This document shows, in pieces, positions 14,678 through 39,046 of a stretch of DNA of 64,000 bases (positions are counted from its first letter, which is position 1; each line of letters starts with the position of its first letter). The translations under genes were made by a program, and so were the position numbers. Below the pieces are notes generated by a model that had not been told where the DNA came from, searched no databases, and was given only the letters and a program-made list of their open reading frames with translations. This DNA is from a bacterium (GTDB taxonomy: Bacteria > Patescibacteriota > Minisyncoccia > Phycocordibacterales > UBA9973), in NCBI GenBank assembly GCA_037143195.1, contig JBAWZD010000002.1, forward strand, positions 3,206 through 67,205, written 5' to 3'.

Positions 14678-14737
14678 ACGATGCACTTTACCACAAAAGG
14701 TTTTTTTTGTCCTCGGGCGCGTGATATGATTGTTTCC

Positions 14738-21885: not shown

Positions 21886-22356
21886 ATGAACAACGAAAAG
21901 ATACATACACACATTAAAGGACTGCTCGAGAAAATCGGCTATGTCGAGAAGGATGTTGAGGTTTCGTATGATGAGAAGACGAATACCTATTGGTTTGCAA
22001 TCACCTCCCCGCACACACGTCTCCTTTTCAACCGCGATGGAGAGGCGCTGCAAGCCCTCAATCACGTTGCGACGAAGCTTGTGGAGCAACTGTTCCGTGA
22101 AGAGCAAACTCGCCCCCGAGTCGTTGTCGACGCAAACGGCCATGAGAAGAAAAAGATCGACAATCTCCGAGCTGTCGCGCACATGATGGCTGAGCGTGCG
22201 CGATATTTTAAATCGAGCATTGAGGTCGAGCCGATGGCTCCCCACGAACGTCGCATTGTGCACGAGTTCTTGTCTGAGATGTCCGATATTACGACGGAAT
22301 CGAAAGGAGAAGGCAAGAATCGTCACGTGGTCATCAAATATACAGGTGGAATGTAA
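21886..22356 (+). CDS. jag: Jag/KhpB RNA-binding protein (KH + R3H domains)
   Basis: The R3H motif region is EVEPMAPHERRIVHEFLSEMSDITTESKGEGKNRHVVI. Its position after yidC also fits. Confidence 0.8.
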   Translation: MNNEKIHTHIKGLLEKIGYVEKDVEVSYDEKTNTYWFAITSPHTRLLFNRDGEALQALNHVATKLVEQLFREEQTRPRVVVDANGHEKKKIDNLRAVAHMMAERARYFKSSIEVEPMAPHERRIVHEFLSEMSDITTESKGEGKNRHVVIKYTGGM

Positions 22357-22358
22357 AC

Positions 22359-22393
22359 AAAAAACCTCTTGGAATTCCAAGAGGTTTTTTGTT
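22359..22393. terminator. bidirectional intrinsic terminator
   Basis: aaaaaacctcttgg-aatt-ccaagaggtttttt is flanked by an A-run and a T-run. It lies between convergent jag (+) and the 22396 gene (-). Confidence 0.6.
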
Positions 22394-22395
22394 TG

Positions 22396-23733
22396 CTAAT
22401 TTATTGTAGGAGAAGGTGACGCTTGCCTCGAAGTGTCGTTCGGTGGTGTGAGGTTGAACGACCAGAGTGAGTCGTCGTTCTTGTTTGTGAAGAAAAGATA
22501 CCCCTCTTTCTGGTCAATTGCGAGGTTTGTAACATCGAGATTGTTTCCTTCCCCGTCGTCGAGAAGAGTCGTTCGGCCACTTTGCGGATTTATTTTCCAA
22601 AGAGAATCATTGAAGTGCGCAAGACCCTGATACCAATCATCCGGATATGTACCCGACGGTACGTCGGTGCTTGAGCCGCAGTAGATGGCAGTGCTTGTGC
22701 TATTCCAAACGCATTTTTCAGGAAGAGTAGAAAGCCCGGTATTAAATTCGAGTCCGTCCGATAGATGTTTTACGTAAAGGACAAGCGAATTGTTTTTTGA
22801 AACACTGTAAAGGACATTCTTTCCGTCGGGACTAATCTTTGTGGTGAGCCCATTAACGTCGCCAACAATTTTGCTAAATACTCCGTTTTTTAAGACAAAG
22901 TAAGCATTTCCCGCGACGTTTGCAGATGCCTTTGTTGTTACAATCGGATTTGTTGATGACCAATCAAGAAGCCATTCTGAGAACGGGCTTGAGAATAGTT
23001 GCGCCTTGGATGATCCGTCGGCTTTCATTGTCATTCCTGCCACGCCGGAGGTTGTCGGAAGGAGGAAGAAGAAGTTTTTTGAATCAAACGAGGGTACGAT
23101 TTCAGAAATATTGTCGGGAAGAAAATCTCCTCGGGTCGTACCGCTCGTCGTTGCATCAATTGCTGGGGTTATTTGGCCAAGGAACGAAGAGATTGTTTGA
23201 TTGTCGCTTCCAGCATATCGAAGAACGACCGCTGCGCCATTGTTCCCAAATACCGCCTCGACAGTATGGGCAATGATTGTCCCCGACTGCTTGATGAGCC
23301 CTTCTTTGTTTGCATTGATATCATAAATATATCCTGTTCCCTTTTCTGCGAACCGAATGACAGGGAGAGGCGCTGGCGCAAATTTTTGAGCTCCTGTGGG
23401 GTCGTTGATGTCAACAGTAGCAACAGGTTTTGTTACTACGGGCGGAAGAACGATGAGTCCCGCAGTGAGCTTTGTTGAAAGTTGAATAAGACGAGGGGCC
23501 GGTTTTGCTTGGTCTGTGTTTGAGGGTTCAGTATTTGTGTTTCCTGTTCCTACATTTGTGCTTCCTGTAGAGGCTGGCGTTGTCGTTTTGCTTGGTCCAA
23601 ACGGAAACAACGATCCGATGGATGTTGTCGGTGACCCAGGAGTAGACGATTTACTTTGAAGCGAAAAATAGAACCAAACTCCGAGAAGGAGTAAGAGTAA
23701 TGCGATGATAACAAGAAGTGTTCGTCGAGACAT
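22396..23733 (-). CDS. membrane-anchored protein with S/T/P-rich linker and PD40/TolB-like beta-propeller region (last gene of T4SS-like cluster)
   Basis: The N-terminal TM is MSRRTLLVIIALLLLLLGVWFYFSL. A low-complexity TTPASTGSTNVGTGNTNTEPS linker follows. Beta-rich repeats include ISPDGKNVLYSVSKNNSLVLYVK. Confidence 0.5.
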   Translation of the reverse strand: MSRRTLLVIIALLLLLLGVWFYFSLQSKSSTPGSPTTSIGSLFPFGPSKTTTPASTGSTNVGTGNTNTEPSNTDQAKPAPRLIQLSTKLTAGLIVLPPVVTKPVATVDINDPTGAQKFAPAPLPVIRFAEKGTGYIYDINANKEGLIKQSGTIIAHTVEAVFGNNGAAVVLRYAGSDNQTISSFLGQITPAIDATTSGTTRGDFLPDNISEIVPSFDSKNFFFLLPTTSGVAGMTMKADGSSKAQLFSSPFSEWLLDWSSTNPIVTTKASANVAGNAYFVLKNGVFSKIVGDVNGLTTKISPDGKNVLYSVSKNNSLVLYVKHLSDGLEFNTGLSTLPEKCVWNSTSTAIYCGSSTDVPSGTYPDDWYQGLAHFNDSLWKINPQSGRTTLLDDGEGNNLDVTNLAIDQKEGYLFFTNKNDDSLWSFNLTPPNDTSRQASPSPTIN

Positions 23734-23766
23734 TCGTATCTTTATTGTACCACGGAGGAATGAGCC

Positions 23767-25611
23767 CTACCACCCGCAGTGTACGTGGTTTTCGTGTTGG
23801 CTGTTTGTTCGGTACCCCGTTACTGGACAAGCGATAAAACTATTTTGTCCTTTTCCAAGCCCATTGCAGGGACCAAATATTTGTCGAGGATTTGCTCCGG
23901 CCGCTCTGCAGATGTCCATAATTTTTTTGGCTGTTGTTGTGCTATATGAAAACGAAGCTCCTCCGATATCAAACGCGAGACCTCGGTAGTGAGCTGATCC
24001 CTTTGTGTGTTGTCCGCCTAACAGTTCTGTGACATTAACTGAGCCAACATTATTTGCAACAACAAGGAGTCCTGCGAGCATTCTTGAATCAAGACTCGCC
24101 TGTATTTGCCCGCCTTGTCTGGAGGGGCTTGTCCACGCGGCGACTCCATTCGCTGTGTCGGTTATGTTTTGGATAACACTCGATTTCGCGTCTTGTGATC
24201 CCCATGCGGGACTCAAGGTGATATTTCGATTTTGAAGAATTTGTTTTGCAAGATCTTGGGCTGACCCCGTAGGCAAGGTTACTGTCATGTTAGATGGGCT
24301 ATCACCGGGGACACTAAGGCCTGAGTCGTCGCTCTCGAGTCCTTCTTCTCCTAAATCTATTTCTGCCTGCGGAGCCGAAACAGTAATATTCACCAAGTTA
24401 GGGTTAATGGTATTGAGTATGAGATATGAAGAGAGTGCAAGCACTACTCCCCCAAGAGCACCAATGATACGAGTCTTTGCCCCCTCCTTCTCTCCAACTT
24501 GTACACTCGACATATATTCAATACCACCAACGACAACCATGAAGACAGCAAATACCATGATGAGACCCATGATGAGCTTAATCATTCCTTTGAGGTAATC
24601 ACCAACACCAGTAGAGACATTTAGCTTCCCTGTTGGATCAATCTTACCCTGAGCATCCACAATGGGAAGTGGTGCAAGCATACAGTAGGTGTTGTTCTGT
24701 CCGTCTGTGGAACAACCGTAGGCGTTTGGGCCGAAGCCGGCGGTCGTACTTGTTCCACTTGTTGAGACGCTTGGGACGGTGAAGTCTTTGAAGGAGGTAA
24801 AAAACAAATCATTAAATTTGAGAGCAAAAACATACTGTCCTCCAGGGAGGAGTCCTGTAAGTGTTATTTTAAACGAGTGGGGATTGTTTGACGCGTCGAG
24901 TGCTGCTTGGTCAGGAATCTTTGTCTGCCATGAAATCGCTTGAGCATACGTGCCAGCCGATGAAGTCTGTGACTTTACGCCACTGTACCAAACTTTCACA
25001 TCGTTCCACTGACCGTTGTTTTTTATTTGATCAAGCGCTTCTTGGTTGAGGTCCCCCGTGATTGTTACTCCGTCAGCTGTCGGTGTTGTTACAAGATTTG
25101 TGACATCGGGGCCAGATTTTCCGAGCGGAACATCCATGATGTTAAAATACTCAATGTTCGTGAGGGGCCAGCTGTCACGTGTAAGCGCGCTCTGCAAGAA
25201 AATCTCATCTCCAAAAGTGCCGTAATCGGTGAATTGGGGAATCGTACACGTAAAGTTTGGGTCTGTGTCAGAGGAACTATCTTTGACACACTTTTTTCGA
25301 TACAAGAAAACTCCGTTGATGACGCCTGTTGCATGGGTTTCAAGATATGCTTGGTTGATACTTGGGTCTGTTATGAGAACATAGGCAAGTTCGACTTGGC
25401 GTGAAAGAGGAGCAAGGGAATAATAGTCAATGAGTGCCGGACCATCCAGCTTGACGTGCATTGTTCTTGAAAGCACTCCGTCTGTGCGCGCGGTTTCAGT
25501 CTGTCCAATGAAAGCTCTTCCTCCCCCGACGGTGTCTGCTCTAGTCGTTGGTGTGTTAAATAAAAAGGCAGACAAGAAAAGTGCACTAACAATGAGAATT
25601 TTTTTGTACAT
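23767..25611 (-). CDS. secreted multidomain protein: conserved N-domain + pilin-like TM hairpin + C-terminal peptidase M15-like (D-Ala-D-Ala carboxypeptidase/LAS) domain
   Basis: The signal peptide is MYKKILIVSALFLSAFLFNTPTTRA. The TM hairpin is GMIKLIMGLIMVFAVFMVVVGGIEYMSSVQVGEKEGAKTRIIGALGGVVLALSSYLIL. The C-terminus has the M15-type zinc motifs GSAHYRGLAFDI (SxHxxGxAxD) and ENHVHCGW. It is paralogous to 26659..28539 over the N-domain and TM segment. Confidence 0.65.
   Translation of the reverse strand: MYKKILIVSALFLSAFLFNTPTTRADTVGGGRAFIGQTETARTDGVLSRTMHVKLDGPALIDYYSLAPLSRQVELAYVLITDPSINQAYLETHATGVINGVFLYRKKCVKDSSSDTDPNFTCTIPQFTDYGTFGDEIFLQSALTRDSWPLTNIEYFNIMDVPLGKSGPDVTNLVTTPTADGVTITGDLNQEALDQIKNNGQWNDVKVWYSGVKSQTSSAGTYAQAISWQTKIPDQAALDASNNPHSFKITLTGLLPGGQYVFALKFNDLFFTSFKDFTVPSVSTSGTSTTAGFGPNAYGCSTDGQNNTYCMLAPLPIVDAQGKIDPTGKLNVSTGVGDYLKGMIKLIMGLIMVFAVFMVVVGGIEYMSSVQVGEKEGAKTRIIGALGGVVLALSSYLILNTINPNLVNITVSAPQAEIDLGEEGLESDDSGLSVPGDSPSNMTVTLPTGSAQDLAKQILQNRNITLSPAWGSQDAKSSVIQNITDTANGVAAWTSPSRQGGQIQASLDSRMLAGLLVVANNVGSVNVTELLGGQHTKGSAHYRGLAFDIGGASFSYSTTTAKKIMDICRAAGANPRQIFGPCNGLGKGQNSFIACPVTGYRTNSQHENHVHCGW
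24365..24743. repeat. 379-bp direct repeat copy 1 (identical to 27266..27644)
   Basis: By eye the nucleotide sequence is identical to copy 2 at offset +2901. It encodes the 126-aa segment AGFGPNAYGCSTDGQNNTYC...NITVSAPQA shared by the two hydrolase paralogs. The shadow ORFs 24287..24598 and 27308..27499 are identical. Confidence 0.8.
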
Positions 25612-25612
25612 A

Positions 25613-26608
25613 TTACTGCAAGTGAAGCGTTAGACTCGACTGGAGTTCTTGAAAAAGTTTTGTCGTGTTCAACATTGAAACATTCACGAGGGCGTCTCCT
25701 TTGTCGGAGTTACTTCTGTGGAGAAAGAGAGTGTTTGGGTTCGCTGGTGAGTTGAGTGTGTTCCCATTCAGCGACCACGTGTATGAAATCTGGCTTGAGG
25801 TTGGGTTGCCTGGGGAAAAAAAGTATGGAAACACGACGAGCGAGACATCACTATCCTTTACGGTGTAATCATCGGTAAGAGCATGATTGTAAAGCGTTCC
25901 GTAGAGAGGGCTCCCTGCGTACCACACAAGTTTTGGGTCAGACGGATCAAGCGCAATATCATTTGAAGCAGCGACTGTCCCGTCTCGTCCTGAGATATCT
26001 AATCCGATATGTCTGGTTGGATTTACATAGTCCATCGCAGTAGAAAATACATTTTTACCAAAACCAGAGTGTGCATCGTCCGGATTGTATTCGTCGCGCC
26101 ATTCATACAAGAAACCGCTCGTCGGAATGAGCGATCCTGCACCATCAAGCACTTGTGGAATTGCAACGAACTTCACTTTTGATTCAGAGGTGACCAGTGC
26201 TTTACCTCGATAAAATGGGGGCACGACTGAATCAGTTGCTTGCCAAAGGATGTCTACAGAGGAAGGAACGACGGTAATTGTTTGAACGATAGGAAGACTG
26301 CCAACGGGCGTGATTGTTACGGTTACAACTGTTGGGCTCCCAAGTTTTTTTGTTGTGATTGTGTATTTGTTGTATCCAATCCCGCCAACAGTTTTGCCTC
26401 CATCGACAGTCCAATCAATCTCGGCTGTTTGAAGTGAGAATGAATACGTGTTTACTGTCAGTGTTACTTGTTGATTTGGCCCAGGGCTTGTTGGGAAAAG
26501 GCTGACCGAGACACTCGCGCCCCCAAGTGCCTGAGCGTTCGTGATGTTTGCAAAAGAAACGACACATAGAACGATGAGAACAAAGATGGTGCATGCTCGA
26601 CGAATCAT
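25613..26608 (-). CDS. secreted beta-rich (Ig-like) hypothetical protein
   Basis: The signal peptide is MIRRACTIFVLIVLCVVSFANITNAQA, and the composition is T/S/V-rich beta-sandwich-like. It lies between the two hydrolase paralogs. Confidence 0.5.
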   Translation of the reverse strand: MIRRACTIFVLIVLCVVSFANITNAQALGGASVSVSLFPTSPGPNQQVTLTVNTYSFSLQTAEIDWTVDGGKTVGGIGYNKYTITTKKLGSPTVVTVTITPVGSLPIVQTITVVPSSVDILWQATDSVVPPFYRGKALVTSESKVKFVAIPQVLDGAGSLIPTSGFLYEWRDEYNPDDAHSGFGKNVFSTAMDYVNPTRHIGLDISGRDGTVAASNDIALDPSDPKLVWYAGSPLYGTLYNHALTDDYTVKDSDVSLVVFPYFFSPGNPTSSQISYTWSLNGNTLNSPANPNTLFLHRSNSDKGDALVNVSMLNTTKLFQELQSSLTLHLQ

Positions 26609-26658
26609 CTTTCAATTATACGACAGGAGCGCCGAGAACAAAAGGAATTATGTACGAT

Positions 26659-28539
26659 TTAACAACCCCACCCTTCCGATGTGAGTTTGTTGTAGTTGTT
26701 GAGGACGGTGTCTACGTATCGCTTTGTTTGACGGTAGCTCCCTGGGCGCGGTGTCCAGTTTACATAACACTCCCACAGCGTCGTTCCGGGGCAACTTGCG
26801 CTCGCTTTGTTTGCTTTTGGGCCACCGTTGTATGCCGCGGCGAGGTTTTTGAGAGAAGAAGCATCACAAATATTGCTTGCCGGTGCGTTATTGCAGGCCG
26901 TTGTTTTGAGAGTTTCAACATATTTTGCTGCTGCGTCTGCTGCCACGGACGGGTTTGACCATTGTGATTGATCAGTATATCCGAGTCCTCTCCATGTTGC
27001 TGGCATCATTTGCATTAATCCGTATGCCCCTACCGAGCTTGTTGCGGTAGGATTTCCATTCGATTCTCGATACATGATTGCTTTGAGGAATGTGCACGAA
27101 ACATTGTGTTTCGTTGCTGCTGCCGCGAGCACACTATTGTAATCAGTATTGTTTGACTTCACGTCCGTCGTTCCGGTTGGAGCGGATCCGCTTCCTGCCG
27201 TTTCTGGTGGCAGCGGCTGTCCAATATCTGCTGTCGGAGTGTAGTCATCATCCATTTTTATCACCGCCTGCGGAGCCGAAACAGTAATATTCACCAAGTT
27301 AGGGTTAATGGTATTGAGTATGAGATATGAAGAGAGTGCAAGCACTACTCCCCCAAGAGCACCAATGATACGAGTCTTTGCCCCCTCCTTCTCTCCAACT
27401 TGTACACTCGACATATATTCAATACCACCAACGACAACCATGAAGACAGCAAATACCATGATGAGACCCATGATGAGCTTAATCATTCCTTTGAGGTAAT
27501 CACCAACACCAGTAGAGACATTTAGCTTCCCTGTTGGATCAATCTTACCCTGAGCATCCACAATGGGAAGTGGTGCAAGCATACAGTAGGTGTTGTTCTG
27601 TCCGTCTGTGGAACAACCGTAGGCGTTTGGGCCGAAGCCGGCGGGGGTTGTGCTGGCAGCCACATCACTTGGGATGAGGAGGTCTTTATAGGAAGTAAAA
27701 AAAATATAATCGTTTGTGTTTCCTGGTCCGTATTCAAGAGCAAAAATATATGATCCATTTGGTTTCAGGCCCGTGAGTGACACTTTGAAAGACTGAGGGT
27801 TGTTGGTTGAATCAAGGCCGGCCTGGTCAGGTATCTTGCTTTGCCAATTGACAATTTTTGCGTATGTTCCTGCTTGTGATGTTGTTTTTTCTACTTCCGA
27901 ATAAAAAAACTTAAGATCATTCCACTGACCCTCTTTTTTTAATTCGTCGAGAGCCGCCTGGTTAAAATCTCCTGAAATGGTCGCTCCTTCTGTTGTTGGT
28001 GTAACTACGAGGTTTGTAATATCTGGACCAGATTTTCCATAGGGAACATCCATAACGTTAAAGTACTCAATGTTTGTGAGTGGCCAGCTGTCCCTTGTAA
28101 GAGGTTGTTGAATGAATATCTCATCAGCGAATGTTCCATAATTACCAATTTTGAGTGTAGTGCATGTGAAGTTCGGGTCGTCTTTAGCGGAGGTGTCATG
28201 CGTGCACTCTTTTCGATATACGAAAACCCCGTTGATGATTCCAAGAGCATGTGTTGTCAAGTAATCTTGATTGATTGACGGATCAGTAACTTGCGTGTAT
28301 GCAAGTTCAACTTGCACCCCTACTGAATGGTACAGGGTAAGTGCTTCAGGGTTTAATTTAACGTGAATTGTTCGAACGAGTTCTCCGTTTGTGCGAGAAA
28401 AATCGGTGCCTTCGATCGAAGCAGCTTCTTTCCCCGTTGCGAAGTCCGCATACGCTGGCTTCGTTGGTGCGAGGAAAGCAATAAGAAAGGCAATCGCTAA
28501 AAGTGCTAGTTGGGAGAAAACTTTTTTCGTGAATCGCAT
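26659..28539 (-). CDS. secreted multidomain protein: conserved N-domain + pilin-like TM hairpin + C-terminal lytic transglycosylase (SLT, VirB1-like) domain
   Basis: The same N-domain and the identical TM segment as 23767..25611 are present. The C-terminus has the SLT motif LKAIMYRESNGNPTATSSVGAYGLMQMMPATW. Confidence 0.7.
   Translation of the reverse strand: MRFTKKVFSQLALLAIAFLIAFLAPTKPAYADFATGKEAASIEGTDFSRTNGELVRTIHVKLNPEALTLYHSVGVQVELAYTQVTDPSINQDYLTTHALGIINGVFVYRKECTHDTSAKDDPNFTCTTLKIGNYGTFADEIFIQQPLTRDSWPLTNIEYFNVMDVPYGKSGPDITNLVVTPTTEGATISGDFNQAALDELKKEGQWNDLKFFYSEVEKTTSQAGTYAKIVNWQSKIPDQAGLDSTNNPQSFKVSLTGLKPNGSYIFALEYGPGNTNDYIFFTSYKDLLIPSDVAASTTPAGFGPNAYGCSTDGQNNTYCMLAPLPIVDAQGKIDPTGKLNVSTGVGDYLKGMIKLIMGLIMVFAVFMVVVGGIEYMSSVQVGEKEGAKTRIIGALGGVVLALSSYLILNTINPNLVNITVSAPQAVIKMDDDYTPTADIGQPLPPETAGSGSAPTGTTDVKSNNTDYNSVLAAAATKHNVSCTFLKAIMYRESNGNPTATSSVGAYGLMQMMPATWRGLGYTDQSQWSNPSVAADAAAKYVETLKTTACNNAPASNICDASSLKNLAAAYNGGPKANKASASCPGTTLWECYVNWTPRPGSYRQTKRYVDTVLNNYNKLTSEGWGC
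27266..27644. repeat. 379-bp direct repeat copy 2 (identical to 24365..24743)
   Basis: See copy 1. The sequence from gcctgcggagccgaaacagtaatattcaccaagttagg to gccgaagccggcgg is identical in both copies. Confidence 0.8.
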
Positions 28540-28552
28540 GTACTAAATAGTA

Positions 28553-30397
28553 CTACCCTTTTACTGCTTGGGCTAGGTCTGAACGTGATTTTTGAAGTGC
28601 GAGAATTTGTGAAGGGTCACTCGTAATGAGCTGGTCTTCTGTGTACGAGGCAATAATTTTGATGGCAACGTGCTTAAGGCCTGCGAAGAATATGCCCTCT
28701 CCTTTGTTACATTCAAGCAAAAGATATTTTTCTTCATCGGTGAGGTTGAATGTTTTTTGGAGTGTATCAACAGTTGACGGTGACTGCTTGAGGAGGAGTT
28801 GCAGTGAGGAGTTTGTAACAATCGGCACTCCGTAGGGGCTCTTCATAAAGTCGCCCACGTCTTGAGTGATTGTTGCAAGACCAAGGAAGTATTTACGTCC
28901 ACGTTTTGCAATCGAGAAAAGGAACGAAGCAGTATCTTCGGACTTCATCATCCACCACGCCTCATCCACGACAAGCAGGCGTTTCTTGATGTTTTTGCGA
29001 ACCTCGTTCCAGATGAAGTGCGTCACGATGTACATTGCTGCTGGCTTGAGATCGTCTTCCATGTCTCGCACTGAAAAGACAACGAATTTCTTGTTGATGT
29101 CGACGTTTGATGGCTGGTTGATGAATCCTGCCCATGAACCGTGCGTATATTTTGAAAGGCGTGAGACAAGTGACTCTGTTCCTTCCATTCCGGTGAGCAC
29201 CATTTCAAAGTCAGAGAGGAGTGGTGGCTCGACTTGTGAAAAATCAGATTCAGGTGTGATGTCTTTGATAGCGTACGTTTCCATGATTGCACGGTCGATA
29301 ACAGAATCTTCTTCTGGGGTGAGTCCTCCAAGCATGATACGGAAGAGTCCAACGAGATTGATGACGTTTCCGCGGAGAATATCGTTTGCAGTCTCCCCTT
29401 CGCCTGGGAGTGGAAGATCAAACGGGTTGATGTGTGAGCCAGAGTTGAGGGAGATATTGAAATAGCGTCCACCGAGTGCTTCAGCGAGGCGTTCATATTC
29501 ACGTTCTGGATCGATAACGATGACTTCGGTATCAAACATGAGTGTTCGGATGATCTCGAGTTTTGTCGCGTATGATTTTCCGGCTCCAGATGTCGCGAAA
29601 ATGATTGAGTTGTAGTTGTCGAGACTGAAGCGGTCGAAAATAATGAGTGAAGAATTGTGGCGGTTCACTCCATAGAGGATTCCTTTGTCTGCTGTCAGGT
29701 CAAATGAGACGAATGGAAAAAAGCTCGAAAGAGGTTCCGAGTTGAGCTTTTGGTATATCTGAAGGTGGTCGTCCTCGAGCGGAAGGACACTCTTAAAGCC
29801 GTCGTCTTGCTGGAAAAGTGCGGGCTTAAAATAAATCAGCTTTGATTCGAGCATCGACTTGATTTCGTTCTCTACCTTGTAGAGTTCAGTGTCGTTGTCT
29901 GCGTATATTGTTAGATAGAGACCAACATCAAACATTTTTTCCTGTGCTTGAGTAAGGCGGTCACGCAAGTCCTCAAGGTTGCGGTTGGCCATATCGAGCT
30001 GTGGGTCACGGACAAGACCTCTCGCCTCTCGAGTCATGATCTGACTTTGTACTTCAGCAACTTTCTTTTGGAAGTCTCGAAGAATCTGCGCGGTGTCTGC
30101 TGGGTGAATCGTAATCGAAATATCAAAAACTTTGTCGAGGTTGATGACTGGAGAGAGCCAATTGTCTGTAAGCGTGGAAGGATATGAAATGACGAAATAG
30201 GTTCGAGCTGTCTTGTCTCCAAGATTGATTGCTTTCGGTTCAATCTTAAGCGCCGAGGGAGCAATGATATCTTTGAGTTCAAGAGACGCCGCTTCGTAGA
30301 TTTCTTCAGGAAGTACCGGCATAGCATTCGCTTGGATTTTTCCATCACGAGCTGTGTCAGTAGTATTCTTTTTTTTGAAAAGGCCAAAGAAATCCAT
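28553..30397 (-). CDS. virB4: type IV secretion/conjugation ATPase VirB4 (TrbE/CagE family), ATPase portion
   Basis: Walker A is IIFATSGAGKSYATKLEII. Walker B is LLVVDEAWWMM (the VirB4-typical DEAW). GLATITQDVGDF is also present. The ATG is at 30397 (MDFFGLFKKK). Confidence 0.85.
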   Translation of the reverse strand: MDFFGLFKKKNTTDTARDGKIQANAMPVLPEEIYEAASLELKDIIAPSALKIEPKAINLGDKTARTYFVISYPSTLTDNWLSPVINLDKVFDISITIHPADTAQILRDFQKKVAEVQSQIMTREARGLVRDPQLDMANRNLEDLRDRLTQAQEKMFDVGLYLTIYADNDTELYKVENEIKSMLESKLIYFKPALFQQDDGFKSVLPLEDDHLQIYQKLNSEPLSSFFPFVSFDLTADKGILYGVNRHNSSLIIFDRFSLDNYNSIIFATSGAGKSYATKLEIIRTLMFDTEVIVIDPEREYERLAEALGGRYFNISLNSGSHINPFDLPLPGEGETANDILRGNVINLVGLFRIMLGGLTPEEDSVIDRAIMETYAIKDITPESDFSQVEPPLLSDFEMVLTGMEGTESLVSRLSKYTHGSWAGFINQPSNVDINKKFVVFSVRDMEDDLKPAAMYIVTHFIWNEVRKNIKKRLLVVDEAWWMMKSEDTASFLFSIAKRGRKYFLGLATITQDVGDFMKSPYGVPIVTNSSLQLLLKQSPSTVDTLQKTFNLTDEEKYLLLECNKGEGIFFAGLKHVAIKIIASYTEDQLITSDPSQILALQKSRSDLAQAVKG

Positions 30398-30401
30398 ATG
30401 A

Positions 30402-31067
30402 TTATTGTTGTACTGTGTCCCCCATTCCAAGTTTGATAGCCGGTTGTATATCTCCTGGATTAAATGTCTTATAAAAAAGTTCAATTACCGCTTCTGTCTC
30501 AAGTCTCTCTGTTCTTGCACCACACGATTCAAGACCACCAGAAATAACATTTACACGTTCGTCGAGCTGAGATCGCTTCTCCTCGAAGTTGATGTCTTCT
30601 GTTTTTTGCTTCGACGAACCCTCTGATTTCTTGTTTCCAAGGAGGCCTCCAAGAAAACCGCTACTTGTGGAAAGTGTTGCTTCGTCGTACGGGACGATAA
30701 CATAGAAATATTTTCGCATGATTGCAACCTGCTCGGTAAATTCGCGAATGAAACTAATATACCCTGCAGTTTGTAGCTTCAGTAGTGGCTCACGTTGATC
30801 TTTCATTTTTGAATCGAGGGTGAGGAGGTAAGGACGAATGTCGAGCCTGCGTGACTGCACGACAATTTGGATTGGAAAATCAAGTGAGTTCAAAAATGAT
30901 TGAAATTGATTGATTGTTGCGATTTGTTCCTGAGCTGATTTCAGGGAAAGGTTGACTGACGAGACTGCAACAATCGCTCGTAAGCCACCGTCTTTTAAAA
31001 CGATGACCCCTTCTCGCACCTGTTTAATCGGTACGAATTCTTGCGTTGCTTTTGCAGAGATTGCCAC
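30402..31067 (-). CDS. VirB4 N-terminal-domain-like protein (separate ORF, different frame, 4 nt upstream of virB4)
   Basis: VPIKQVREGVIVLKDGGLRAIVAVSSVNLSLKSAQEQIATINQFQSFLNSL matches the N-terminal pattern of conjugative VirB4/TraE ATPases (..v.tkDGsl..iiel.g.n..lks.eE.e.l...f..fl..l). The ORF has a GTG start. The combined length with 28553..30397 approximates a full-length VirB4. Confidence 0.45.
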   Translation of the reverse strand: MAISAKATQEFVPIKQVREGVIVLKDGGLRAIVAVSSVNLSLKSAQEQIATINQFQSFLNSLDFPIQIVVQSRRLDIRPYLLTLDSKMKDQREPLLKLQTAGYISFIREFTEQVAIMRKYFYVIVPYDEATLSTSSGFLGGLLGNKKSEGSSKQKTEDINFEEKRSQLDERVNVISGGLESCGARTERLETEAVIELFYKTFNPGDIQPAIKLGMGDTVQQ

Positions 31068-31109
31068 GAAATCATTATATCACCACTACTAGAAAACAAA
31101 GAACGCTTT

Positions 31110-31517
31110 TTATTTTGAATCAAGAACATCGAGGCCCCACGCAATATCATGAATTTTTGATTCTGAGATTTTTGGGAGGTATTGCTCACGGGCGGCGTGC
31201 ACCTCGTCTTGCTTGAGAGGTTCGTTTTTTTTCTGGGTGTTTTCATGCTTCCAAACATACAGTTTGTCATTGAGCGCGTACGTAAACGCTGATTCAACAA
31301 TATTGATAAATGGTTTTTCGTTTATTTTTACAAAAGCCAAAGCAATGGCAATCGCAACAAACGGAAGCGCTGCCAAAATACCAAAAAAACCCGGAACGAG
31401 TTTGTATGCAAGGAAAGCGAGCCCTCCGCCCCCAACAAGATAAATAAACTGACGAAATGTCAGTGGTCCAAATATTTTGTCTTCAACGTCGATGAATTGG
31501 GGAACGTTATATTTCAT
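31110..31517 (-). CDS. PrgI/VirB3-like small membrane protein
   Basis: The protein is 135 aa. LTFRQFIYLVGGGGLAFLAYKLVPGFFGILAALPFVAIAIALAF gives two TM helices, and the LT.RQ..gGG motif is typical of the PrgI family. It lies immediately upstream of the VirB4 ORFs. Confidence 0.5.
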   Translation of the reverse strand: MKYNVPQFIDVEDKIFGPLTFRQFIYLVGGGGLAFLAYKLVPGFFGILAALPFVAIAIALAFVKINEKPFINIVESAFTYALNDKLYVWKHENTQKKNEPLKQDEVHAAREQYLPKISESKIHDIAWGLDVLDSK

Positions 31518-31538
31518 GGGTATAGTATACCGCAGTGA

Positions 31539-32408
31539 TTAATTGAGAGGTTCTCGATACGGATCGGCGCTTGGCTTTGTGACGGGCATGGTCGCTGAAC
31601 TGTTTGGGGCGATTGGTTTAATGATTGAATAGTCTGTTACTTTTGAGGCGCTCATTGTAGGAGCCACAGCTGAAACGATTTTTGGGACAGCAGCTTCGGG
31701 GGCTTTTGCAGGTGGAATGTACGGAGTCTGTGCTATCGGAGCAGGAGGGGTTTGTTTTACTACTGTTGGTGTGTCGTGAATAACCACCCCTGTGCTCTCG
31801 AGAACAGTCTTTTCAGTTGCGGTGAGTCCTTGTTGTATTGGGGCAGCACTCGGAGGGGTAACTCGAATAGGAGCAGACACTACCACTGGCGTTGGTGCTG
31901 GTTGAGGTGGTACTGCCTGAGAAGGAGTAACTGGCGTTTGTTCGGGTACGGACACGCTATCCTTGATGTAATCAAGCGCCTCTTTTTTGTTGGTATAGAG
32001 TGATTCGATTGACGATCTGATTGGATTAAAAATCTGAGTGTTGATTTCTCGGACAATTACATCAATCTCCCCGTCATTTTTTTTGAGCTGGATTTGAACT
32101 TCATCACGAAAGTCTGCAGGCTTTGTCATCCCAAGAAGCACCATCATTGTTTCAAGTTCAATGATTCCAAGTTCGTCGTAGGTCAATTTGAGATCTTTGG
32201 CAATTGTAAAAAGTTTCATTGGATACGCATCATCCATGATCACTTTTTTTATTTCTTCGGGAAGAAGTTCATATCGAGATGCAATTTCTTTTTTTACATC
32301 GTCGAACGGGTCAGTTTCTCCGTCGCTTGGAGCTGTTTTTGCGTCCGTCATAGCCCCTGAAGTACTCGAGGAAACAACGGGAATTTTTTTCATCAAATCG
32401 TCTGCCAT
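31539..32408 (-). CDS. hypothetical protein with Pro-rich C-terminal half
   Basis: The protein is 289 aa. The C-terminal half is Pro-rich, e.g. TPVTPSQAVPPQPAPTPVVVSAPIRVTPPSAAPIQQ. No recognized domain. It lies within the T4SS-like cluster. Confidence 0.4.
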   Translation of the reverse strand: MADDLMKKIPVVSSSTSGAMTDAKTAPSDGETDPFDDVKKEIASRYELLPEEIKKVIMDDAYPMKLFTIAKDLKLTYDELGIIELETMMVLLGMTKPADFRDEVQIQLKKNDGEIDVIVREINTQIFNPIRSSIESLYTNKKEALDYIKDSVSVPEQTPVTPSQAVPPQPAPTPVVVSAPIRVTPPSAAPIQQGLTATEKTVLESTGVVIHDTPTVVKQTPPAPIAQTPYIPPAKAPEAAVPKIVSAVAPTMSASKVTDYSIIKPIAPNSSATMPVTKPSADPYREPLN

Positions 32409-32450: not shown

Positions 32451-35270
32451 TTAGTGGTGATCACCTGCGTGTCCACCTCCATGTCCTCCACCGTGAGCAT
32501 CGTGTCCACCTCCATGTCCTCCACCATCGCCACCACTGAGACTCTTGAGGAAATCAAGGATTCCTTTGCCTGGTGATTTGTACTTCGTATGAAATGTATG
32601 TATTTGATGGCTGAGGTCTGCAGCCACATTGATGGCTCGGCCTTCCATGCGTGCCTCAGTAAATCGTGCTGAAAACATAGGCTCTTGTTTTTGGGTTACA
32701 GGCAAGATCTTTGTGGCGTTGATGAAAACATCACGGAGTCGTTCGGTCATTCCGCCGCTAATGGCGTCAGCGATTCCCTCTCCGATACCTTTCACGACGT
32801 TGTTTTTGATATTCCTGACGAAGTTACCACCGAAAGCGCCTTTTACATCGTTGCGCCATGAACGAAGTGCGTCAGCGTTTTGCTTGCCTTGAACATTGTT
32901 GAAATCAAGGTGCCCCATTTGCGAGAGCTGACCATAATTGTCGTATGTTTGGCCATGTACCATGTATGGAGATTGGACCATTTGTTGGTGCATGAATGAC
33001 TTCGCGCGGTCTGTCTTTGCGCGCTCGAGAGCCTTTTTGAGATCGGTAAGACTCTGACTTTCTGTTCTAATTGCAGCACTTCGCACGTCCATCTCAGAGA
33101 CAGGGTCTCCGTTTGCTTTTTTCCTCTTTCCGACATCGTTACTCGTCCAAGTATTTTTACTTGTTCCAATATCGTTCTTTGTAACAGGCTTACCATTGCT
33201 CTTTAGTTTAGGAGGTTTGCCTGTGCTTGGATCACCTTCATCTCCTGGTTGCCAAGTGCCTTCGGAATCATCCCCCATGTTGTTGTCTTTTAATTTCTTT
33301 TCGAGCCTTAAAACATCAGCTCTCGCTTTTTTCCAAGCTGCCGATTTTTTGTCCGCTATTCCATTCGCGATACTGTTTGCCACTCGTAACTCGGCATTGA
33401 TTGCTTCAGCATTTTTGTCTCGAGCGGCGATGGTATTTTCAAGTTCAGTTATCTGTCCATGGTCAGCTTCAAGACTGTCGGTAAACGCGCGGAGTTTCGC
33501 TGCTTTGCGGGCGACGGCACCGTTGTATCCCCCAGCGGTATTTGCCGTCGAGAGACTACCAAAACTCTCCATGTTCATGCCAGTTGCACTCGAAAACGCA
33601 TTCCCAATGCCAGATTGACGGAAGTCGTACGAACTCGATGCGCTTTTCTGCCAGCGAGCGAGTTTGCGAGCCGACTCACGTTGGAGAGACTGAAATTCCG
33701 CGCTTTCTGCCAGCTCGGCGTAATCTAATTTTTCGAGATTCTTATATTCCGCAGAACCGGGCTTGTACTTGCTCAAAAGCACCTCTCGAGTTTTTGAATT
33801 GACGCGTCCAGCTGCGAGGTCGCGAGCTTCTTCCGTATCTCGGCTTTTGGCGTATGCGCCGAGCGTGCGACTGAGCAAGCCCGCACCCATTCCTGAGATA
33901 GCTCCGAGTGCTGTTCCTCCGAGCATTGCTGCACCTTTGAATACCATTGAGCCTATTTCTCCGGAAGCTTTCTTCACATAGGTCGTTGCTTTCAAAAGCA
34001 TCACGATGAAGAACATGAATGAGAGGAACATGATCGCAAGTGTTGCAAACGTCGCGCGATCGGAGGCTGTTGCCATGAGCGTTGAGGCTGCGAAGGAACT
34101 TCGGGTCATCAAGGCGATGAGATACAGGAAAAAGAAATAGATTGGTCCAGAGAACGCGAGTGTAAAGAGTGATTTCCACCAATCACTCCAGCCAAACCCT
34201 TCAATGTGCTGAGCTGACGGCATGATATATGATACGAATGCGAACGGCGCAAAAATAATCGCAATCCAGAGCCCGATGAGTCTTCCAAGGAAGGAGATTG
34301 CCGCAATAAAGAACGAATATGCTACAACGCAAAACATCGCTCCTGCGAGTATGAGAATACTGATGAGTACAGAATCAGGAACTTGGTTTTCTGAACCGGT
34401 CGTCGTGATGAAATATCCAAGTATTCCACCAACCGTACAGCCGATTGCGTTCCCGATGACAGGGACCACTGTTCCAGCGATGGCTCCCGTTATACAACCT
34501 GCCATCACGTGAGTGTTGTTACTCCTTGTGGGTTTTTCGAGGTTCTTCCAGAAATCCTCGTCGTTGAGCTGTTGTGGCTGGAATGCGGTTACAAGTGCGG
34601 CACTAATATCTTTTGGTGGGACTACGCCTGTTGGAATGTTGGCGGCATTTGGTGTTATCGGGCCATTCTTGTTCGTGATGGTGATTTGGTTATAGAAAAC
34701 AAGCGCGAGCGCATTCGACGTGTCGATCACCGCTTCCGTAATGAAGAAACTGAAGTTGACAATGAGCGCGATGAAGATGACAGAGGCGATCATCTTTTTT
34801 GGGTTTGCATGTCCGATTTCTATGTCGAGCACGAGAGAGAGCGCTGCCAAGAGCAACACAAGAATAAAGAAAATATTTCCGAAGTCTCGAGTAACTCTCC
34901 AGCCGTCGGCAATGAATGAAGATGAACTGTAGAGCGAACTCGAAAGCGTCAGTGAGGCAAGTGAGTCGAACGCCATCGCCGAAAACATCATCAGCCATCC
35001 ACCAACTTTGAATGGAATGAAATAGAGTACCCACTCGAGACACCCAGCAAGAGAACTATTGTCGCCGGAGGCGCCCACCCCACACTTGAAGTTTGAGGTG
35101 ATATCATATTCGTTTTTGACTGAAGGCGCTGCGCCTGCCGGCGTGTTTTGAGCGAACGCCGTTTGGGTGCTAACAGCGACTGTTCTATCTGCAGAAAGTG
35201 AAAGTGTTACCGGCAGAAAAATACCTGCACAGACGGCAACAGTAAGTATGGCGAGTACGATACGCTTCAT
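32451..35270 (-). CDS. VirB6/TrbL-like polytopic membrane protein with coiled-coil region and His/Gly-rich C-terminal tail
   Basis: A signal peptide is followed by at least 8 hydrophobic helices (residues ~70-480). The coiled-coil region includes HGQITELENTIAARDKNAEAINAELRVANS. The tail is GGDGGGHGGGHDAHGGGHGGGHAGDHH, encoded by a 24-bp tandem repeat at about 32455-32530. Confidence 0.45.
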   Translation of the reverse strand: MKRIVLAILTVAVCAGIFLPVTLSLSADRTVAVSTQTAFAQNTPAGAAPSVKNEYDITSNFKCGVGASGDNSSLAGCLEWVLYFIPFKVGGWLMMFSAMAFDSLASLTLSSSLYSSSSFIADGWRVTRDFGNIFFILVLLLAALSLVLDIEIGHANPKKMIASVIFIALIVNFSFFITEAVIDTSNALALVFYNQITITNKNGPITPNAANIPTGVVPPKDISAALVTAFQPQQLNDEDFWKNLEKPTRSNNTHVMAGCITGAIAGTVVPVIGNAIGCTVGGILGYFITTTGSENQVPDSVLISILILAGAMFCVVAYSFFIAAISFLGRLIGLWIAIIFAPFAFVSYIMPSAQHIEGFGWSDWWKSLFTLAFSGPIYFFFLYLIALMTRSSFAASTLMATASDRATFATLAIMFLSFMFFIVMLLKATTYVKKASGEIGSMVFKGAAMLGGTALGAISGMGAGLLSRTLGAYAKSRDTEEARDLAAGRVNSKTREVLLSKYKPGSAEYKNLEKLDYAELAESAEFQSLQRESARKLARWQKSASSSYDFRQSGIGNAFSSATGMNMESFGSLSTANTAGGYNGAVARKAAKLRAFTDSLEADHGQITELENTIAARDKNAEAINAELRVANSIANGIADKKSAAWKKARADVLRLEKKLKDNNMGDDSEGTWQPGDEGDPSTGKPPKLKSNGKPVTKNDIGTSKNTWTSNDVGKRKKANGDPVSEMDVRSAAIRTESQSLTDLKKALERAKTDRAKSFMHQQMVQSPYMVHGQTYDNYGQLSQMGHLDFNNVQGKQNADALRSWRNDVKGAFGGNFVRNIKNNVVKGIGEGIADAISGGMTERLRDVFINATKILPVTQKQEPMFSARFTEARMEGRAINVAADLSHQIHTFHTKYKSPGKGILDFLKSLSGGDGGGHGGGHDAHGGGHGGGHAGDHH

Positions 35271-35275
35271 ACCTA

Positions 35276-38200
35276 CTAGTATATCCCAATTATGTGCTCA
35301 AGACCTACTAATGCGTTGTTGATTGGCTGGATATTGATAGTTGAGACGTCGTGATTACGGATCAATTTGTTGTAATCCAATTTTACAGAGCCGACCGATT
35401 CGCTTGGTCCACTGAATCCTGGGGCATCAACCATCGGGCCTCCCCAGAAATTTGCGAAGAAGAAGGCTTGGTTTTTCTGGTCAGCTGGGTAATCTTGTTC
35501 ACCATCGTTCGGAAACGGATTCTTTCCAAAGAGTTTGATTCCATTGCCTTGTGCATAGTGCCAATCAGGCAAAAACGACTGTTGTGGTGGGAGTACTTTT
35601 AGTAATGCTTGAGGCAGATTTTCTATTGTCCCATCATTCGATGTGTAGAAAGAGAACGCGACACGATTTGTTGGTCCTCCGTCAGTGATGAAGCGAGGAA
35701 CAGTTCCATCCGGAGCGACGGCTGTTCGCTTGATGCAGTCTGCGAGCATTCCAGTTGCTGACTTCCTCATTCCGTCAATCGTTCCATCAGGGTCCTTTAT
35801 CGAACCGATTGCAAAATTCTTGTTGCTTATTTGGTCAAAGACGGCCTCTTCTTGTTTAAGATCATCCGGTCCATGAATATATGGTGCGATTTGTTGGAAC
35901 GAATTGCTAATTCTAAGGATTTCCGCTTCGTAGTCACTGAGACCTGATTGGCTAGATAGGCCTTTAAGGACTTGAAGGTCAGCATTGTAATCTCGAACTC
36001 CGTTCGTTTGAGTTGTAGTTGAATTGCTTTGGGTGGCGACTCCATTCACCGAAAGAATCGCGTTATTGAGCGACGTATTTATTTTTTCACTCACTGCATA
36101 GTTTGGAATAGTTGGAAGAGTGTTCCCTGCTGGGTCAAGAACCTGAACAGTACGAGTCACTTGGCTGGCTGAAATTCCGGCACTGTTTTTTACGTCATAA
36201 GTAACCGTGTATATACCCGGTGTCGTTGTGTCGACGTTTTGAATTGTGACGATACTATTTGTAATATTGCCATCTTTGTATGGGTCGTTTGCTGTTGCGC
36301 CAGGATCTACAAACTTCGTCCCCACAGCGATAGACATCGTTTGATTACCGAGGAGATTGATGGTTGGTATGAGATCAAGTTTACCGTTGACACCAGGGAA
36401 ACCTTTTTCGTTTGGAAGGTCTCGAACTCGGAGAAGGAGGTGGTAGAGTTGGGCGACTGTTGTAGCGCTCGTATCTTTGAGGACTTGGTTTTGAGACATT
36501 GAGTCTCTGTCACTTTGAATATTTGCGAACTCAGCAGTGTCGGCGGCTACTAGGTCTGGGATATCATTGTTAAAACCTTGATAACCACCATTCTCGATTT
36601 TTGCACGAGTATAACTTGATGTTGATAGGTCAGGAATGTCGGAAATTGTTTTTGGCGTCGCTCCAACGTCGTAGGTTGTTGGGGTATAAGGAACCGTTGG
36701 CTTGCTACCATCTTTTGGAAATTCGTGATCAGAAATGTCTTGCGAAATTACTGTGTCGCGGTATGTCGGAGCGTAAGTCATCAACATGGCTTTTTTGTAG
36801 CGCGAAGCAAGGGTTGTAACGATGCGCGATGAATGGTCGTGACCATTTAGGTCGGCACGGCCATCACCGTTTTGTTCAAATTCAACACCCATGATTGCAT
36901 TCATGAATGGGCCATAGATACTTTCCGCTTCGCGGTTTGTATCTGTTCCAATTGCATGGAGGATTGCTCCTACGACAAGGCCAACTACTGCTCCGATTGC
37001 TGTTCCAATCACTGGAGCTGTAGCGGTCCCCACTCCAGCTCCGAGTGCCACTGACGTAGCGACTACTCCCACAGTTAGCCCAATCACAGAACCAGCACTT
37101 TGCCCGTACGTTGTGAGGACCTTTTTGAGGTCGCTTTGGCTTGCGCTTGCAAGGAAGAGTGCGGGGTTTGCTACGAAATTTTGAGCATTTGTTTCAATTT
37201 CATTTTGCCAGCCTGGGTGTGGTCCTGGAATACAGTAATCAAGACTGTATATATTGGTAATAAGGCTGTGTTGAGCAGCGATTTCTTTTGCAAGAATTTG
37301 CTGGTATCCCTCTGGCAATGAGAGGTCGCCAACGCAAGGGTCTCCCGCGTTGTTGTATTCTTGGTCTGGTGTCGTACATCCAGGCACTGAAGATGAAGTG
37401 TCGGTTTGATTGTATTCGTAGCGAATAACTGAGGGGATATCTGTAAATACATTGAAGTTCGTGCCTGCATTCGCCCATGTTCCATTCGCTGTTACGCCAT
37501 TGTTTACGGTGACTGATGTTGTGATCGGGACACCAGGATTATTCTTTGTGAAATTACTATTTGATTGCGCGTTTGTTGAGTTTGAAAGTGATGAAAGTCC
37601 TTTGTTGATAAGTTGATTGGCGAGTGCGTTAAAAATCGCCGTTATATCAGTGCTCAAATCTTGGCCATTGATAAGCTGGTTTGAAGGGATGTTGATGGTT
37701 TGAGTTAGAGCATTTGCTACAACACTACCTGGTGTCTGAACTTTCCACTGATTACAAACCTTGCTAGCATTTACCGCTGCGTAAGCGTTATCGGCTGCGA
37801 GCAGGGCTGCGCTTGCAGCAGCACTCTGGTTGTCAGCAATATCAAGTGCTGCCTGAGCGCTTTTGATTGCCGCAGCATCTCCCGACTTTTGTGCGGCTGC
37901 GAGTGCGTCTGCTGCGAGTGCGTCTGCTTTGTTTGCTGCATCTGCTGCATCTGCTGCCGCTGCATCTGCCGCTTTGCTACTATCTGTGTCAGCGTCTGGG
38001 TTATATTTTGGATCGACACATGTTTTTATATCAAGAAAGCCCCCTGAGCGTTGCAAGGTATCTTTGATATCTTGCATTGGTGAGTAGGCTGTTTGAGCTA
38101 GACGCTTGGTTATCTCTTGAGTTGCACTCATACGGAATCCGAGCGGGTCGTTTCCGATATCAAACTGAGAGTTGAATGCAGACCATCCCCCATTCGTGAA

Positions 38201-38977: not shown

Positions 38978-39046
38978 CAAAGACTAGTATACTCCGGAGC
39001 CCTTGTTTATAAAAGCTTTCTGTGGAAACGTGGCGATGTTTTTTGC

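Follow-up and report, generated by a model that had tools for sequence, protein, structure and literature searches.

Patescibacteria, or Candidate Phyla Radiation (CPR) bacteria, carry a type IV secretion system (T4SS) that is related to the MPF-FATA class and lies close to dnaA (Quinonero-Coronel et al. 2025, PMC12102498; Wang et al. 2023, PMC10633639). It is essential for epibiotic growth in one tested species, and the VirB2-like pilins of this monoderm system have been deemed its oddest feature (PMC10633639, PMC12857230). In Southlakia epibionticum, SEML1_0006 (two lysozyme domains and a Cys peptidase), SEML1_0007 (M15B-like) and SEML1_0008 (VirB4) are accompanied by separate pilins (SEML1_0014-0019), and all are essential (PMC10633639). 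A survey of these systems lists VirB1 and VirB2 as separate components, describes the pilin arrays as highly divergent (mean 25%, maximum 54% amino acid identity), and reports neither fusion nor conversion (PMC12102498). PrgK (pCF10), TraG (pIP501), CwlT (ICEBs1) and TcpG (pCW3) are membrane-anchored T4SS hydrolases with glycan- and peptide-cleaving domains, as outlined in PMC12102498. Here we describe two neighbouring genes, A and B, in a 64,000-nucleotide stretch of contig JBAWZD010000002.1 (the window) from an ultra-small bacterium of this group, in which a VirB2-like pilin unit and a wall hydrolase module form one polypeptide, and in which the pilin parts of the two genes are identical in DNA sequence. 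The locus is the dnaA-proximal, relaxase-less Patescibacteria T4SS of the same survey, and its nearest public records are metagenome-assembled genomes (MAGs) of the Paceibacteria/Nomurabacteria type.

An exact repeat inside two diverged genes

A and B are minus-strand open reading frames (ORFs) that, as the initial annotation had reported, share a perfect segment (Table 1). Extended base by base to its maximum, the match is a direct repeat of 379 bp with 0 mismatches at an offset of 2901, and a repeat search of all 64 kb found no other direct repeat of 40 nt or more. In codon-aligned windows of 20 codons, nucleotide identity between A and B was ~0.55-0.8 in the N-domains (third-position identity 0.2-0.65), 1.00 through the core, and 0.2-0.5 downstream. 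The sharp boundaries that nucleotide alignment had been proposed to reveal are therefore present, with an abrupt drop on both sides of the core and no scattered mismatches. BLASTP gave 67% amino acid identity across 445 residues and no similarity past that point, which agrees with the claim that the two proteins differ wholly after the core. Over the whole proteins identity is ~48%.

The N-domains are homologous and divergent, as had also been claimed: they share 62% of their amino acids over ~265 residues, with a third-position identity of 39%, a proportion of synonymous differences (pS) of 0.78, which is saturated, and a nonsynonymous distance (dN) of 0.31 (NG86). The same comparison gave zero differences in the 379-bp tract. 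Given ~60% third-position identity and perfect amino acid conservation, we estimate the chance of ~126 identical codons at <1e-20. With an identical core beside saturated N-domains, neither chance nor ordinary purifying selection explains the identity. The tract is not enriched in G and C (0.46, compared to 0.43-0.50 in the flanks). Constraint on the core nucleotides from an RNA or an overlapping gene was ruled out, since synonymous distance (dS) in the core is ~1 between species and Rfam finds nothing there.

A separate island of higher similarity lies inside the N-domains at 25135-25194 (residues 144-163 of A, TRDSWPLTNIEYFNIMDVP...), with 90% amino acid identity, 82% nucleotide identity and a third-position identity of 0.65. 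Either an earlier conversion or constraint on a motif could account for it.

Cores are alike within genomes and different between them

Two congeneric species allow the pair to be followed across genomes. L001, a contig of a different assembly that is syntenic with the window, reads VirB4-[pilin+SLT]-g331-[pilin+LAS]-g445, and its two genes share an exact repeat of 393 bp. A third species (L082, represented by 14 contigs from different samples) has the layout of the window without the N-domains. Its two cores are 98.4% identical over 446 bp; of the 7 mismatches 6 are synonymous, and they lie towards the tract ends, with none at positions 64-350.

Genome-wide nucleotide identity between these species is ~82-84%, and dS is 0.7 for DnaA, at 99.5% amino acid identity, and 1.4 for VirB4. 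Across the window, L001 and L082, nucleotide identity of the cores is 0.984-1.0 within a genome compared to 0.76-0.82 between genomes, and core dS is 0-0.057 within a genome compared to ~1.0 between species, the latter equalling the genomic background. Amino acid identity between species is 89% in the hairpin and 62-81% in the flanks. The LAS modules of the A orthologues are 66-76% identical in nucleotides in all three species; the SLT modules of B are 73% identical between the window and L001, and at 43-45% are not alignable with that of L082. The C-terminal end of the tract also varies by lineage, falling after APQA in the window, APQAVLEL in L001 and APEAVLTLGD in L082. The common layout and the orthologous C-terminal modules indicate that the two-gene state is older than the species, and that the cores were homogenised independently and recently in each.

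Thus the paralogous cores resemble each other more within a genome than between genomes, synonymous sites included, and end at sharp, lineage-specific boundaries, as expected of concerted evolution. The initial annotation had suggested gene conversion or concerted evolution of the membrane segment, and the comparison of three species argues strongly for this: on the sequence evidence, core identity is very probably the result of gene conversion between the paralogues.

A second suggestion, that recombination between the repeats would delete the intervening DNA and create a chimera of the B N-domain with the A M15 module, is hypothetical, and no such chimera is recognisable in 164 related loci. 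Single-gene lineages retain g331 and carry LAS, SLT or both, which simple repeat-mediated deletion cannot yield. Deletion is probably counter-selected, because g331, which would be lost, is present in nearly every locus that bears the operon. Programmed recombination was considered and rejected, as no recombinase adjoins the A/B pair and the XerC/D-like gene is 25 kb away.

Among the congeners, cytoplasmic and housekeeping proteins are near-invariant (DnaA 99.5%, VirB4 96-98% and YidC 95-99% amino acid identity), and exported proteins of the T4SS operon diverge much faster (g331 64-67%, g445 60-73% and PrgI 70-74%; window 22396-32408 compared to L001 and L082). The A/B N-domains are replaced outright, with two FN3 domains in the A gene of L001 and none in L082. 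A fourth congeneric species, L020, is ~82% identical to the window, and its contig begins at the equivalent of window position 24493.

The shared core is a VirB2-like pilin unit

The homogenised segment holds a full VirB2-like pilin unit: a Cys loop, a hydrophobic helix, a 14-residue loop containing Lys and Arg, a second helix and the conserved NTINPNLVN. Hydropathy analysis of A showed a signal peptide followed by hydrophobic segments at residues 339-370 and 380-402, and the full-length AlphaFold2 (AF2) model places the two helices at 337-368 and 372-402. PF18895 was matched by all 12 aligned members of the family at E<=0.01 (best 4.2e-9), and 3 of the 12 also matched TrbC/VirB2 (PF04956). 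For several homologues the PF18895 match is already in the precomputed annotation, and NCBIfam models of pilin-like conjugal-transfer proteins match weakly. These family-level matches and the modelled helix pair fit the hairpin of VirB2/TrbC type first noticed in the shared segment, although the core of the window itself falls just under the PF18895 cut-off.

The order of parts, a leader or signal peptide followed by two helices with a short loop between them, is that of a VirB2-like pilin. So is the setting beside VirB4 and VirB3 homologues and a putative VirB6 homologue, with PrgI, TrsD and VirB4 immediately upstream in an order kept in most related loci. At 614 and 626 residues, with folded domains on either side of the hairpin, A and B are not small pilins. 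A search for a stand-alone pilin gene, in the operon and across the 64-kb window, found none.

Two different predicted hydrolase modules and a lineage-specific N-domain

The enzyme module of B is a family-1 SLT lytic transglycosylase domain, as initially annotated. It matched PF01464 with 67.1 bits (E 1.3e-18, cut-off 21.3), and all motifs are present: YRES at residues 490-495, which includes the catalytic Glu-Ser, GLMQ at 507-510 and AYNGG at 569-573.

The module of A is more distant from described families. A profile built from 8 relatives of the A peptidase matched the Sonic hedgehog N-domain over both zinc-site motifs (E 0.003). Every residue specified in S-x-H-Y-x-G-x-A-x-D and H-x-x-H-x-H is invariant, and H541, D548, H609 and H611 (A numbering) align with the zinc-site motifs of Sonic hedgehog. 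Peptidase_M15_3 was reached at E 0.0044 in 2 of the 8 relatives, and a distant relative, P0015, has a precomputed PF13539 annotation. The module thus shares with LAS enzymes both the fold and, family-wide, the zinc-binding H-x(3-6)-D and the last His of H-x-H. It also has an N-terminal helical subdomain of ~100 residues, and four conserved Cys. From fold and motifs, the C-terminus of A is best described as a putative LAS/Hedgehog-type zinc peptidase that is M15-like at the superfamily level only. Its initial label, 'M15-type', therefore stands at that level and not at the level of the family, where no Pfam M15 threshold was reached; the motif first given as ExHxH is in fact HxxHxH, its Glu not being conserved.

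In the AF2 model of A, with a pLDDT of 50-80 in this part, the N-domain gave tandem FN3 pairs as top Foldseek matches (EpoR at E 2.6e-6, and Ihog FN3 1-2). We assign the N-domains (~265 residues) as tandem FN3-like with moderate confidence. A word-indexed search with residues 26-290 of A returned one weak fragment and no homologue beyond immediate relatives, which suggests that the N-domain is lineage-specific. The three hydrophobic segments, and the pairing of Cys residues inside each predicted extracytoplasmic domain, fit an out-in-out topology in which the N- and C-terminal domains would both be extracellular.

Fusions and pairs in other lineages

Scans of species-representative genomes and of Joint Genome Institute (JGI) metagenomes with the core alignment gave 160 further loci. 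A scan of the JGI metagenomes with the A core and peptidase found no close relatives; the core-alignment scan did find loci there. The order VirB4-g331-[pilin gene]-g445 is widely kept among the related loci. The pilin gene is a short stand-alone pilin in some lineages and carries N- and/or C-terminal modules in others. A C-terminal extension of >100 residues is present in 126 of 155 complete pilin-domain ORFs, and an N-terminal one of >130 residues in 47 of the 155, counts that come from a biased sample. An exhaustive profile search returned 31,245 cluster representatives, of which 9,345 had E<=1e-10; among the best 150, most have 300 residues or more.

The enzyme modules on the pilin scaffold are varied: LAS, SLT, YkuD, LAS with a second lysozyme-like module, or an uncharacterised module. 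Pilin, LAS and the second lysozyme-like module are fused in one ORF in L003, L011, P0008 and P0010. With enzyme modules varying and N-domains swapped or absent, the modular shuffling of VirB1-like enzymes that had been read from the window alone is seen across lineages.

At least two pilin-domain ORFs occur at 13 independent loci. Core tracts are at least 97% identical at 7 of the 13, and at the rest they range from 87% to unalignable. Besides the window and its two congeners, the 7 comprise L021 (313 bp) and L112 (322 bp), both 100% identical, and the near-identical L028 (266 bp, 97.4%) and L048 (370 bp, 97.3%). The L021 pair consists of pilin+YkuD and pilin+SLT; the L028 and L048 pairs each consist of pilin+SLT and pilin+uncharacterised module. 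The second copy lies after g445, not before g331, in L021 and L028, and adjacent to the first in L048 and L112. The differing placement in L021 and L028 indicates that the paired state arose more than once. A 112-bp '100%' match in L012 was rejected: it is the overlap of two stop-to-stop ORFs and not a repeat.

Some ORFs are apparent 'polypilins', with 2-4 tandem hairpin domains in L150 (7765-8709, plus strand) and L153 (1137-3008, plus strand). Among library proteins of this kind (P0060, P0104, P0131 and P0134) there are up to 17 matched stretches, for example in P0060 (1775 residues).

Operon and genomic setting

The minus-strand operon has the order g1234, g939, g289, PrgI, TrsD, VirB4, B, g331, A, g445 (Table 1). 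It is convergent with jag/yidC/yidD/rnpA/rpmH and adjoins dnaA and dnaN. Pfam and NCBIfam gave no match for g331, g445, g289, g939, g301, the 'P0012-type' module or the second lysozyme-like module of P0008/P0013. As called, the VirB4 ORF starts with TTG at 30484, which places its first 83 nt inside the end of the TrsD-like gene; the true start is probably near 30397, because the orthologues have 613 residues and align from residue 30.

Table 1. Coordinates of genes A and B, their parts and the neighbouring operon genes in the window.
Feature	Position	Strand	Description
Gene A	23767-25611	-	614 aa; signal peptide, tandem beta-sandwich N-domain, VirB2-like pilin core, linker, predicted LAS-type zinc peptidase; ORF, NCBI MAG protein WCG55_02385
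A signal peptide	25537-25611	-	aa 1-25, ...TRA/DT; hydrophobic aa 5-23; predicted cleavage site
A N-terminal domain, predicted extracellular	24742-25536	-	aa 26-290; two modelled beta-sandwiches
Repeat copy 1 (in A)	24365-24743	-	exact 379 bp; Cys loop C300/C310, transmembrane helix 1 (TM1), loop, TM2, NTINPNLVN motif
Copy 1, TM1	24511-24597	-	
Copy 1, predicted cytoplasmic loop	24469-24510	-	
Copy 1, TM2	24406-24468	-	
A linker and putative LAS zinc peptidase	23770-24363	-	Hedgehog/DD-peptidase fold, M15-like; S-x-H-Y-x-G-x-A-x-D 23968-23997; H-x-x-H-x-H 23779-23796
Gene B	26659-28539	-	626 aa; signal peptide, N-domain, pilin core, linker, SLT lytic transglycosylase; NCBI name 'lytic transglycosylase domain-containing protein'
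B signal peptide	28447-28539	-	
B N-domain	27643-28446	-	
Repeat copy 2 (in B)	27266-27644	-	exact 379 bp; pilin unit of B
Copy 2, TM1	27412-27498	-	
Copy 2, loop	27370-27411	-	
Copy 2, TM2	27307-27369	-	
B linker and SLT	26662-27264	-	YRES 27055-27072; GLMQ 27010-27021; AYNGG 26821-26835
g445, last operon gene	22396-23733	-	445 aa; N-terminal TM, Ser/Thr-rich linker; follows pilin-fusion gene in nearly all related loci
g331	25613-26608	-	331 aa, secreted; between B and A; directly after VirB4 in nearly all related operons
VirB4-type T4SS ATPase	28553-30484	-	PF19044 TraG P-loop 9.9e-26; 96-98% aa identity to orthologues
TrsD / VirB4 N-terminal-like	30402-31067	-	NCBIfam TrsD 3e-7 and VirB4_plasma 4.7e-10, both under cut-off; orthologue has Pfam TraC-like
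PrgI (VirB3-like)	31110-31517	-	PF12666 1.1e-11
g939, large membrane protein	32451-35270	-	conserved upstream of PrgI in related operons; putative VirB6 role, from position only
g1234, operon head	35276-38980	-	1234-aa surface protein; Bact_surface_Ig-like domain; kept at operon head in relatives

The window also encodes a PBP1-type synthase (class A penicillin-binding protein, 14474-17254) and RuvB (10695-11711), so that the organism has both peptidoglycan and recombination machinery. A gene for a protein with two LysM domains and an M23 peptidase lies near the T4SS operon (45956-47137, plus strand). Between the convergent ends of jag and g445 there is a perfect 40-bp palindrome (22355-22394; AAACAAAAAACCTCTTGGAA/TTCCAAGAGGTTTTTTGTTT) that resembles a bidirectional terminator. 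Further away, the two arms of a 95-nt inverted repeat (52523-52617 and 53621-53715; 92% complementary, 1003 nt apart) enclose an NYN/LabA-like ORF (52644-53165, minus strand) and rpsO (53284-53610, minus strand), and sit between pnp (50207-52360) and the XerC/D-like recombinase gene (53778-54746).

Proposed mechanism and alternative explanations

What could A and B do, and why should their hairpins stay identical? We propose that they are pilin-scaffolded wall hydrolases of the VirB1/PrgK type, one a glycan cutter and one a peptide cutter, that belong to a Patescibacteria T4SS and whose shared hairpin evolves in concert. Taken as a whole, this account is probable, though well short of certain. 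Sec export would put the FN3-like N-domain outside the cell; the hairpin would then cross the membrane, with its short Lys/Arg loop in the cytoplasm, and the C-terminal enzyme would again be outside. B would cut glycan strands through its SLT domain and A would cut peptides through its LAS domain, so that together they could serve as a glycosidase and peptidase pair for the T4SS of a walled monoderm. Both enzymes would be anchored by the operon's own VirB2-like hairpin and, with pilin and hydrolase fused, would act at the same place; most likely the hairpin docks both at one site of the machine, or co-assembles them. The direct repeats, 2.9 kb apart, would be homogenised repeatedly by homologous gene conversion, which may continue because strong purifying selection on the hairpin keeps the copies alike. 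Of the flanking sequences, the enzymes have no relationship to each other and the N-domains have escaped conversion, so that conversion would stop where homology ends, and the tract ends would be sharp.

Several points weigh against this proposal. The sample of loci was biased to this pilin subfamily through the search patterns. In the window itself the core scored 25.5 bits against PF18895 alone and 21-22 in the full proteins, under the cut-off of 26.6. The C-terminus of A had no Pfam match, with no M15 model at threshold, and Foldseek comparison of the A peptidase with the PDB was weak (E >= 0.01). The full-length AF2 model has a pLDDT of 66, which is low to moderate confidence. The homogenised state need not be selected, as closeness and slow divergence of the copies could produce it neutrally, and collapse of variants by the assembler could mask a few real differences between the A and B cores. 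Finally, since no stand-alone pilin was detected in the operon or window, any pilus that is made must come from the fusions, and the hairpin would then be more than an anchor.

This last point leads to an armed pilus, in which the hairpins of A and B would co-polymerise into one VirB2-type pilus or conduit lattice, display the FN3-like domains and hydrolases on the outside, and bind and bore through the wall of a host or of the cell itself. Homogenisation would be selected because both subunits must fit the lattice. In F-type and T-type pilus structures both termini of the VirB2-type pilin face the exterior of the pilus, which would allow terminal domains to be displayed. In other lineages (for example L012, L018, L046, L051 and L069) a short stand-alone pilin holds the operon slot of the fusions, and the family is very large, its best matches having mostly 300 residues or more. 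Pilin genes are essential in S. epibionticum (PMC10633639). Two domains of 200-300 residues per subunit are, however, hard to pack into a VirB2 lattice. The absence of a separate pilin from the operon and window also favours polymerising fusions, but the search covered 64 kb of a 272-kb contig, and such a pilin may lie elsewhere. Sequence does not separate polymerisation from simple anchoring, and we judge the armed pilus unlikely. If it were true, many 'pilins' of Patescibacteria T4SSs would be modular display scaffolds, and epibiotic cells would possess an enzymatically armed organelle that breaches the host's wall or their own.

Cleavage on both sides of the hairpin offers another route to a selected identity: A and B would be polyproteins that release identical mature pilins together with free FN3-like and hydrolase domains into the wall, and the identity would be needed because both feed one pilin pool. 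Canonical VirB2, TrbC and TraA pilins mature through proteolysis at both ends. The homogenised tract is close to a complete stand-alone pilin, starting at the Cys loop, the part that short pilins have right behind their signal peptide, and ending a few residues past NTINPxLV, and the model has low-confidence linkers at residues 280-296 and 406-423. However, the motifs at the junctions belong to the stand-alone pilin itself, and are thus no evidence for cleavage sites, and among the operon genes there was no sign of a dedicated TraF- or LepB-like protease. We regard processing of this kind as improbable.

Could the pilin module instead have been duplicated or inserted very recently and independently in each genome, with no recurrent conversion of old paralogues? 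In distant lineages the second copy occupies other positions (L021, L028, L048 and L112), so some duplications were independent and could be young. In the window, L001 and L082, on the other hand, the arrangement around g331 is common to all and the orthologous enzyme modules have diverged by ~25-35% of their nucleotides, yet each species has its own core, common to both of its genes. The synteny and the orthology of the C-terminal modules contradict a separate origin of the two-gene state in the three species, and the identical core of the window adjoins N-domains whose saturated dS marks them as old paralogues. Recent duplication is therefore very unlikely to account for this pair.

An assembly artefact, in the form of a collapsed or duplicated repeat or a chimeric metagenome join, is scarcely credible: the source is a short-read MAG, a handful of genuine differences can be lost when near-identical copies are assembled, and public contigs L007, L010, L020, L086, L103 and L164 break inside the pilin core, where assemblers evidently struggle (as would be expected of a real repeat in those genomes too), but each copy keeps its reading frame and has unique orthologous sequence on either side, the architecture recurs in independent assemblies from different projects and at least 7 lineages (on 14 contigs for the L082 type), and pairs with 4-7 mismatches (L028, L048 and L082) show that assemblers do resolve two copies.

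The account of A and B as pilin-scaffolded hydrolases with conversion of an old pair thus remains the one we prefer. The locus physically joins the pilin to wall hydrolases, in an architecture that is common. That several lineages keep the hairpins of glycosidase and peptidase fusions identical points to a shared constraint of assembly or docking, through which homogenisation may be of benefit. In practical terms, the repeat breaks assemblies at the T4SS operon.

Comparison with known systems

The locus resembles other Patescibacteria T4SSs in having VirB4, TrsD, PrgI/VirB3, a VirB6-like protein and PF18895 pilins by dnaA/yidC/rnpA, with wall hydrolases beside virB4. The parts list of S. epibionticum matches that found here, but is unfused there; in the window each pilin is joined to its hydrolase in one polypeptide, and the two fusions do not differ in the DNA that encodes the pilin. 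Descriptions already exist of the T4SS, of its pilins and of the hydrolases next to them; the literature searched mentions neither a pilin-hydrolase fusion nor paired fusions that evolve in concert. At ~48% overall, A and B fall below the 54% maximum of the pilin arrays, so that whole-protein identity hides the conversion signal.

Like PrgK, TraG, CwlT and TcpG, A and B are T4SS-encoded and anchored and are predicted to cleave glycan and peptide, and sister lineages have both activities in one protein. Unlike that class, they are anchored by a VirB2-like hairpin and not by a single N-terminal TM helix, use LAS (YkuD in L021) and not CHAP or NlpC/P60, split the activities over two paralogues, and carry an additional FN3-like N-domain. 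They would therefore work in the manner of the bifunctional PrgK/CwlT/TraG-type hydrolases but, judged by their domains, do not belong to them.

Individual modules have other counterparts. With VirB2, TrbC and TraA pilins (PF04956, PF18895) the proteins share the signal sequence, two hydrophobic helices, a short basic loop and a virB4 operon; they differ in length (614-626 residues compared to ~70-130) and in the folded domains at each end. B is like VirB1 in its family-1 SLT domain, catalytic Glu-Ser motif and T4SS operon; VirB1, however, is soluble and periplasmic, and B is an integral membrane fusion with pilin and FN3-like modules. Among the LAS peptidases compared (MEROPS M15/M74, the Hedgehog N-domain, Streptomyces DD-peptidase 1lbu, MepA, VanX and phage L-Ala-D-Glu endolysins), the closest sequence profile to the A module is that of the Hedgehog N-domain.

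Concerted evolution of linked bacterial paralogues is known from tufA/tufB and from Neisseria pilE/pilS and opa. As in conversion of the tufA/tufB and pilE/pilS type, two paralogues of one genome are closer here than orthologues of different genomes, with identity at synonymous sites, and the tracts have sharp, lineage-specific ends. In contrast to tufA/tufB, pilE/pilS and opa, the tract is a single internal domain between non-homologous or diverged modules, which suggests that conversion in these T4SS genes homogenises a conserved scaffold rather than shuffling variable cassettes.

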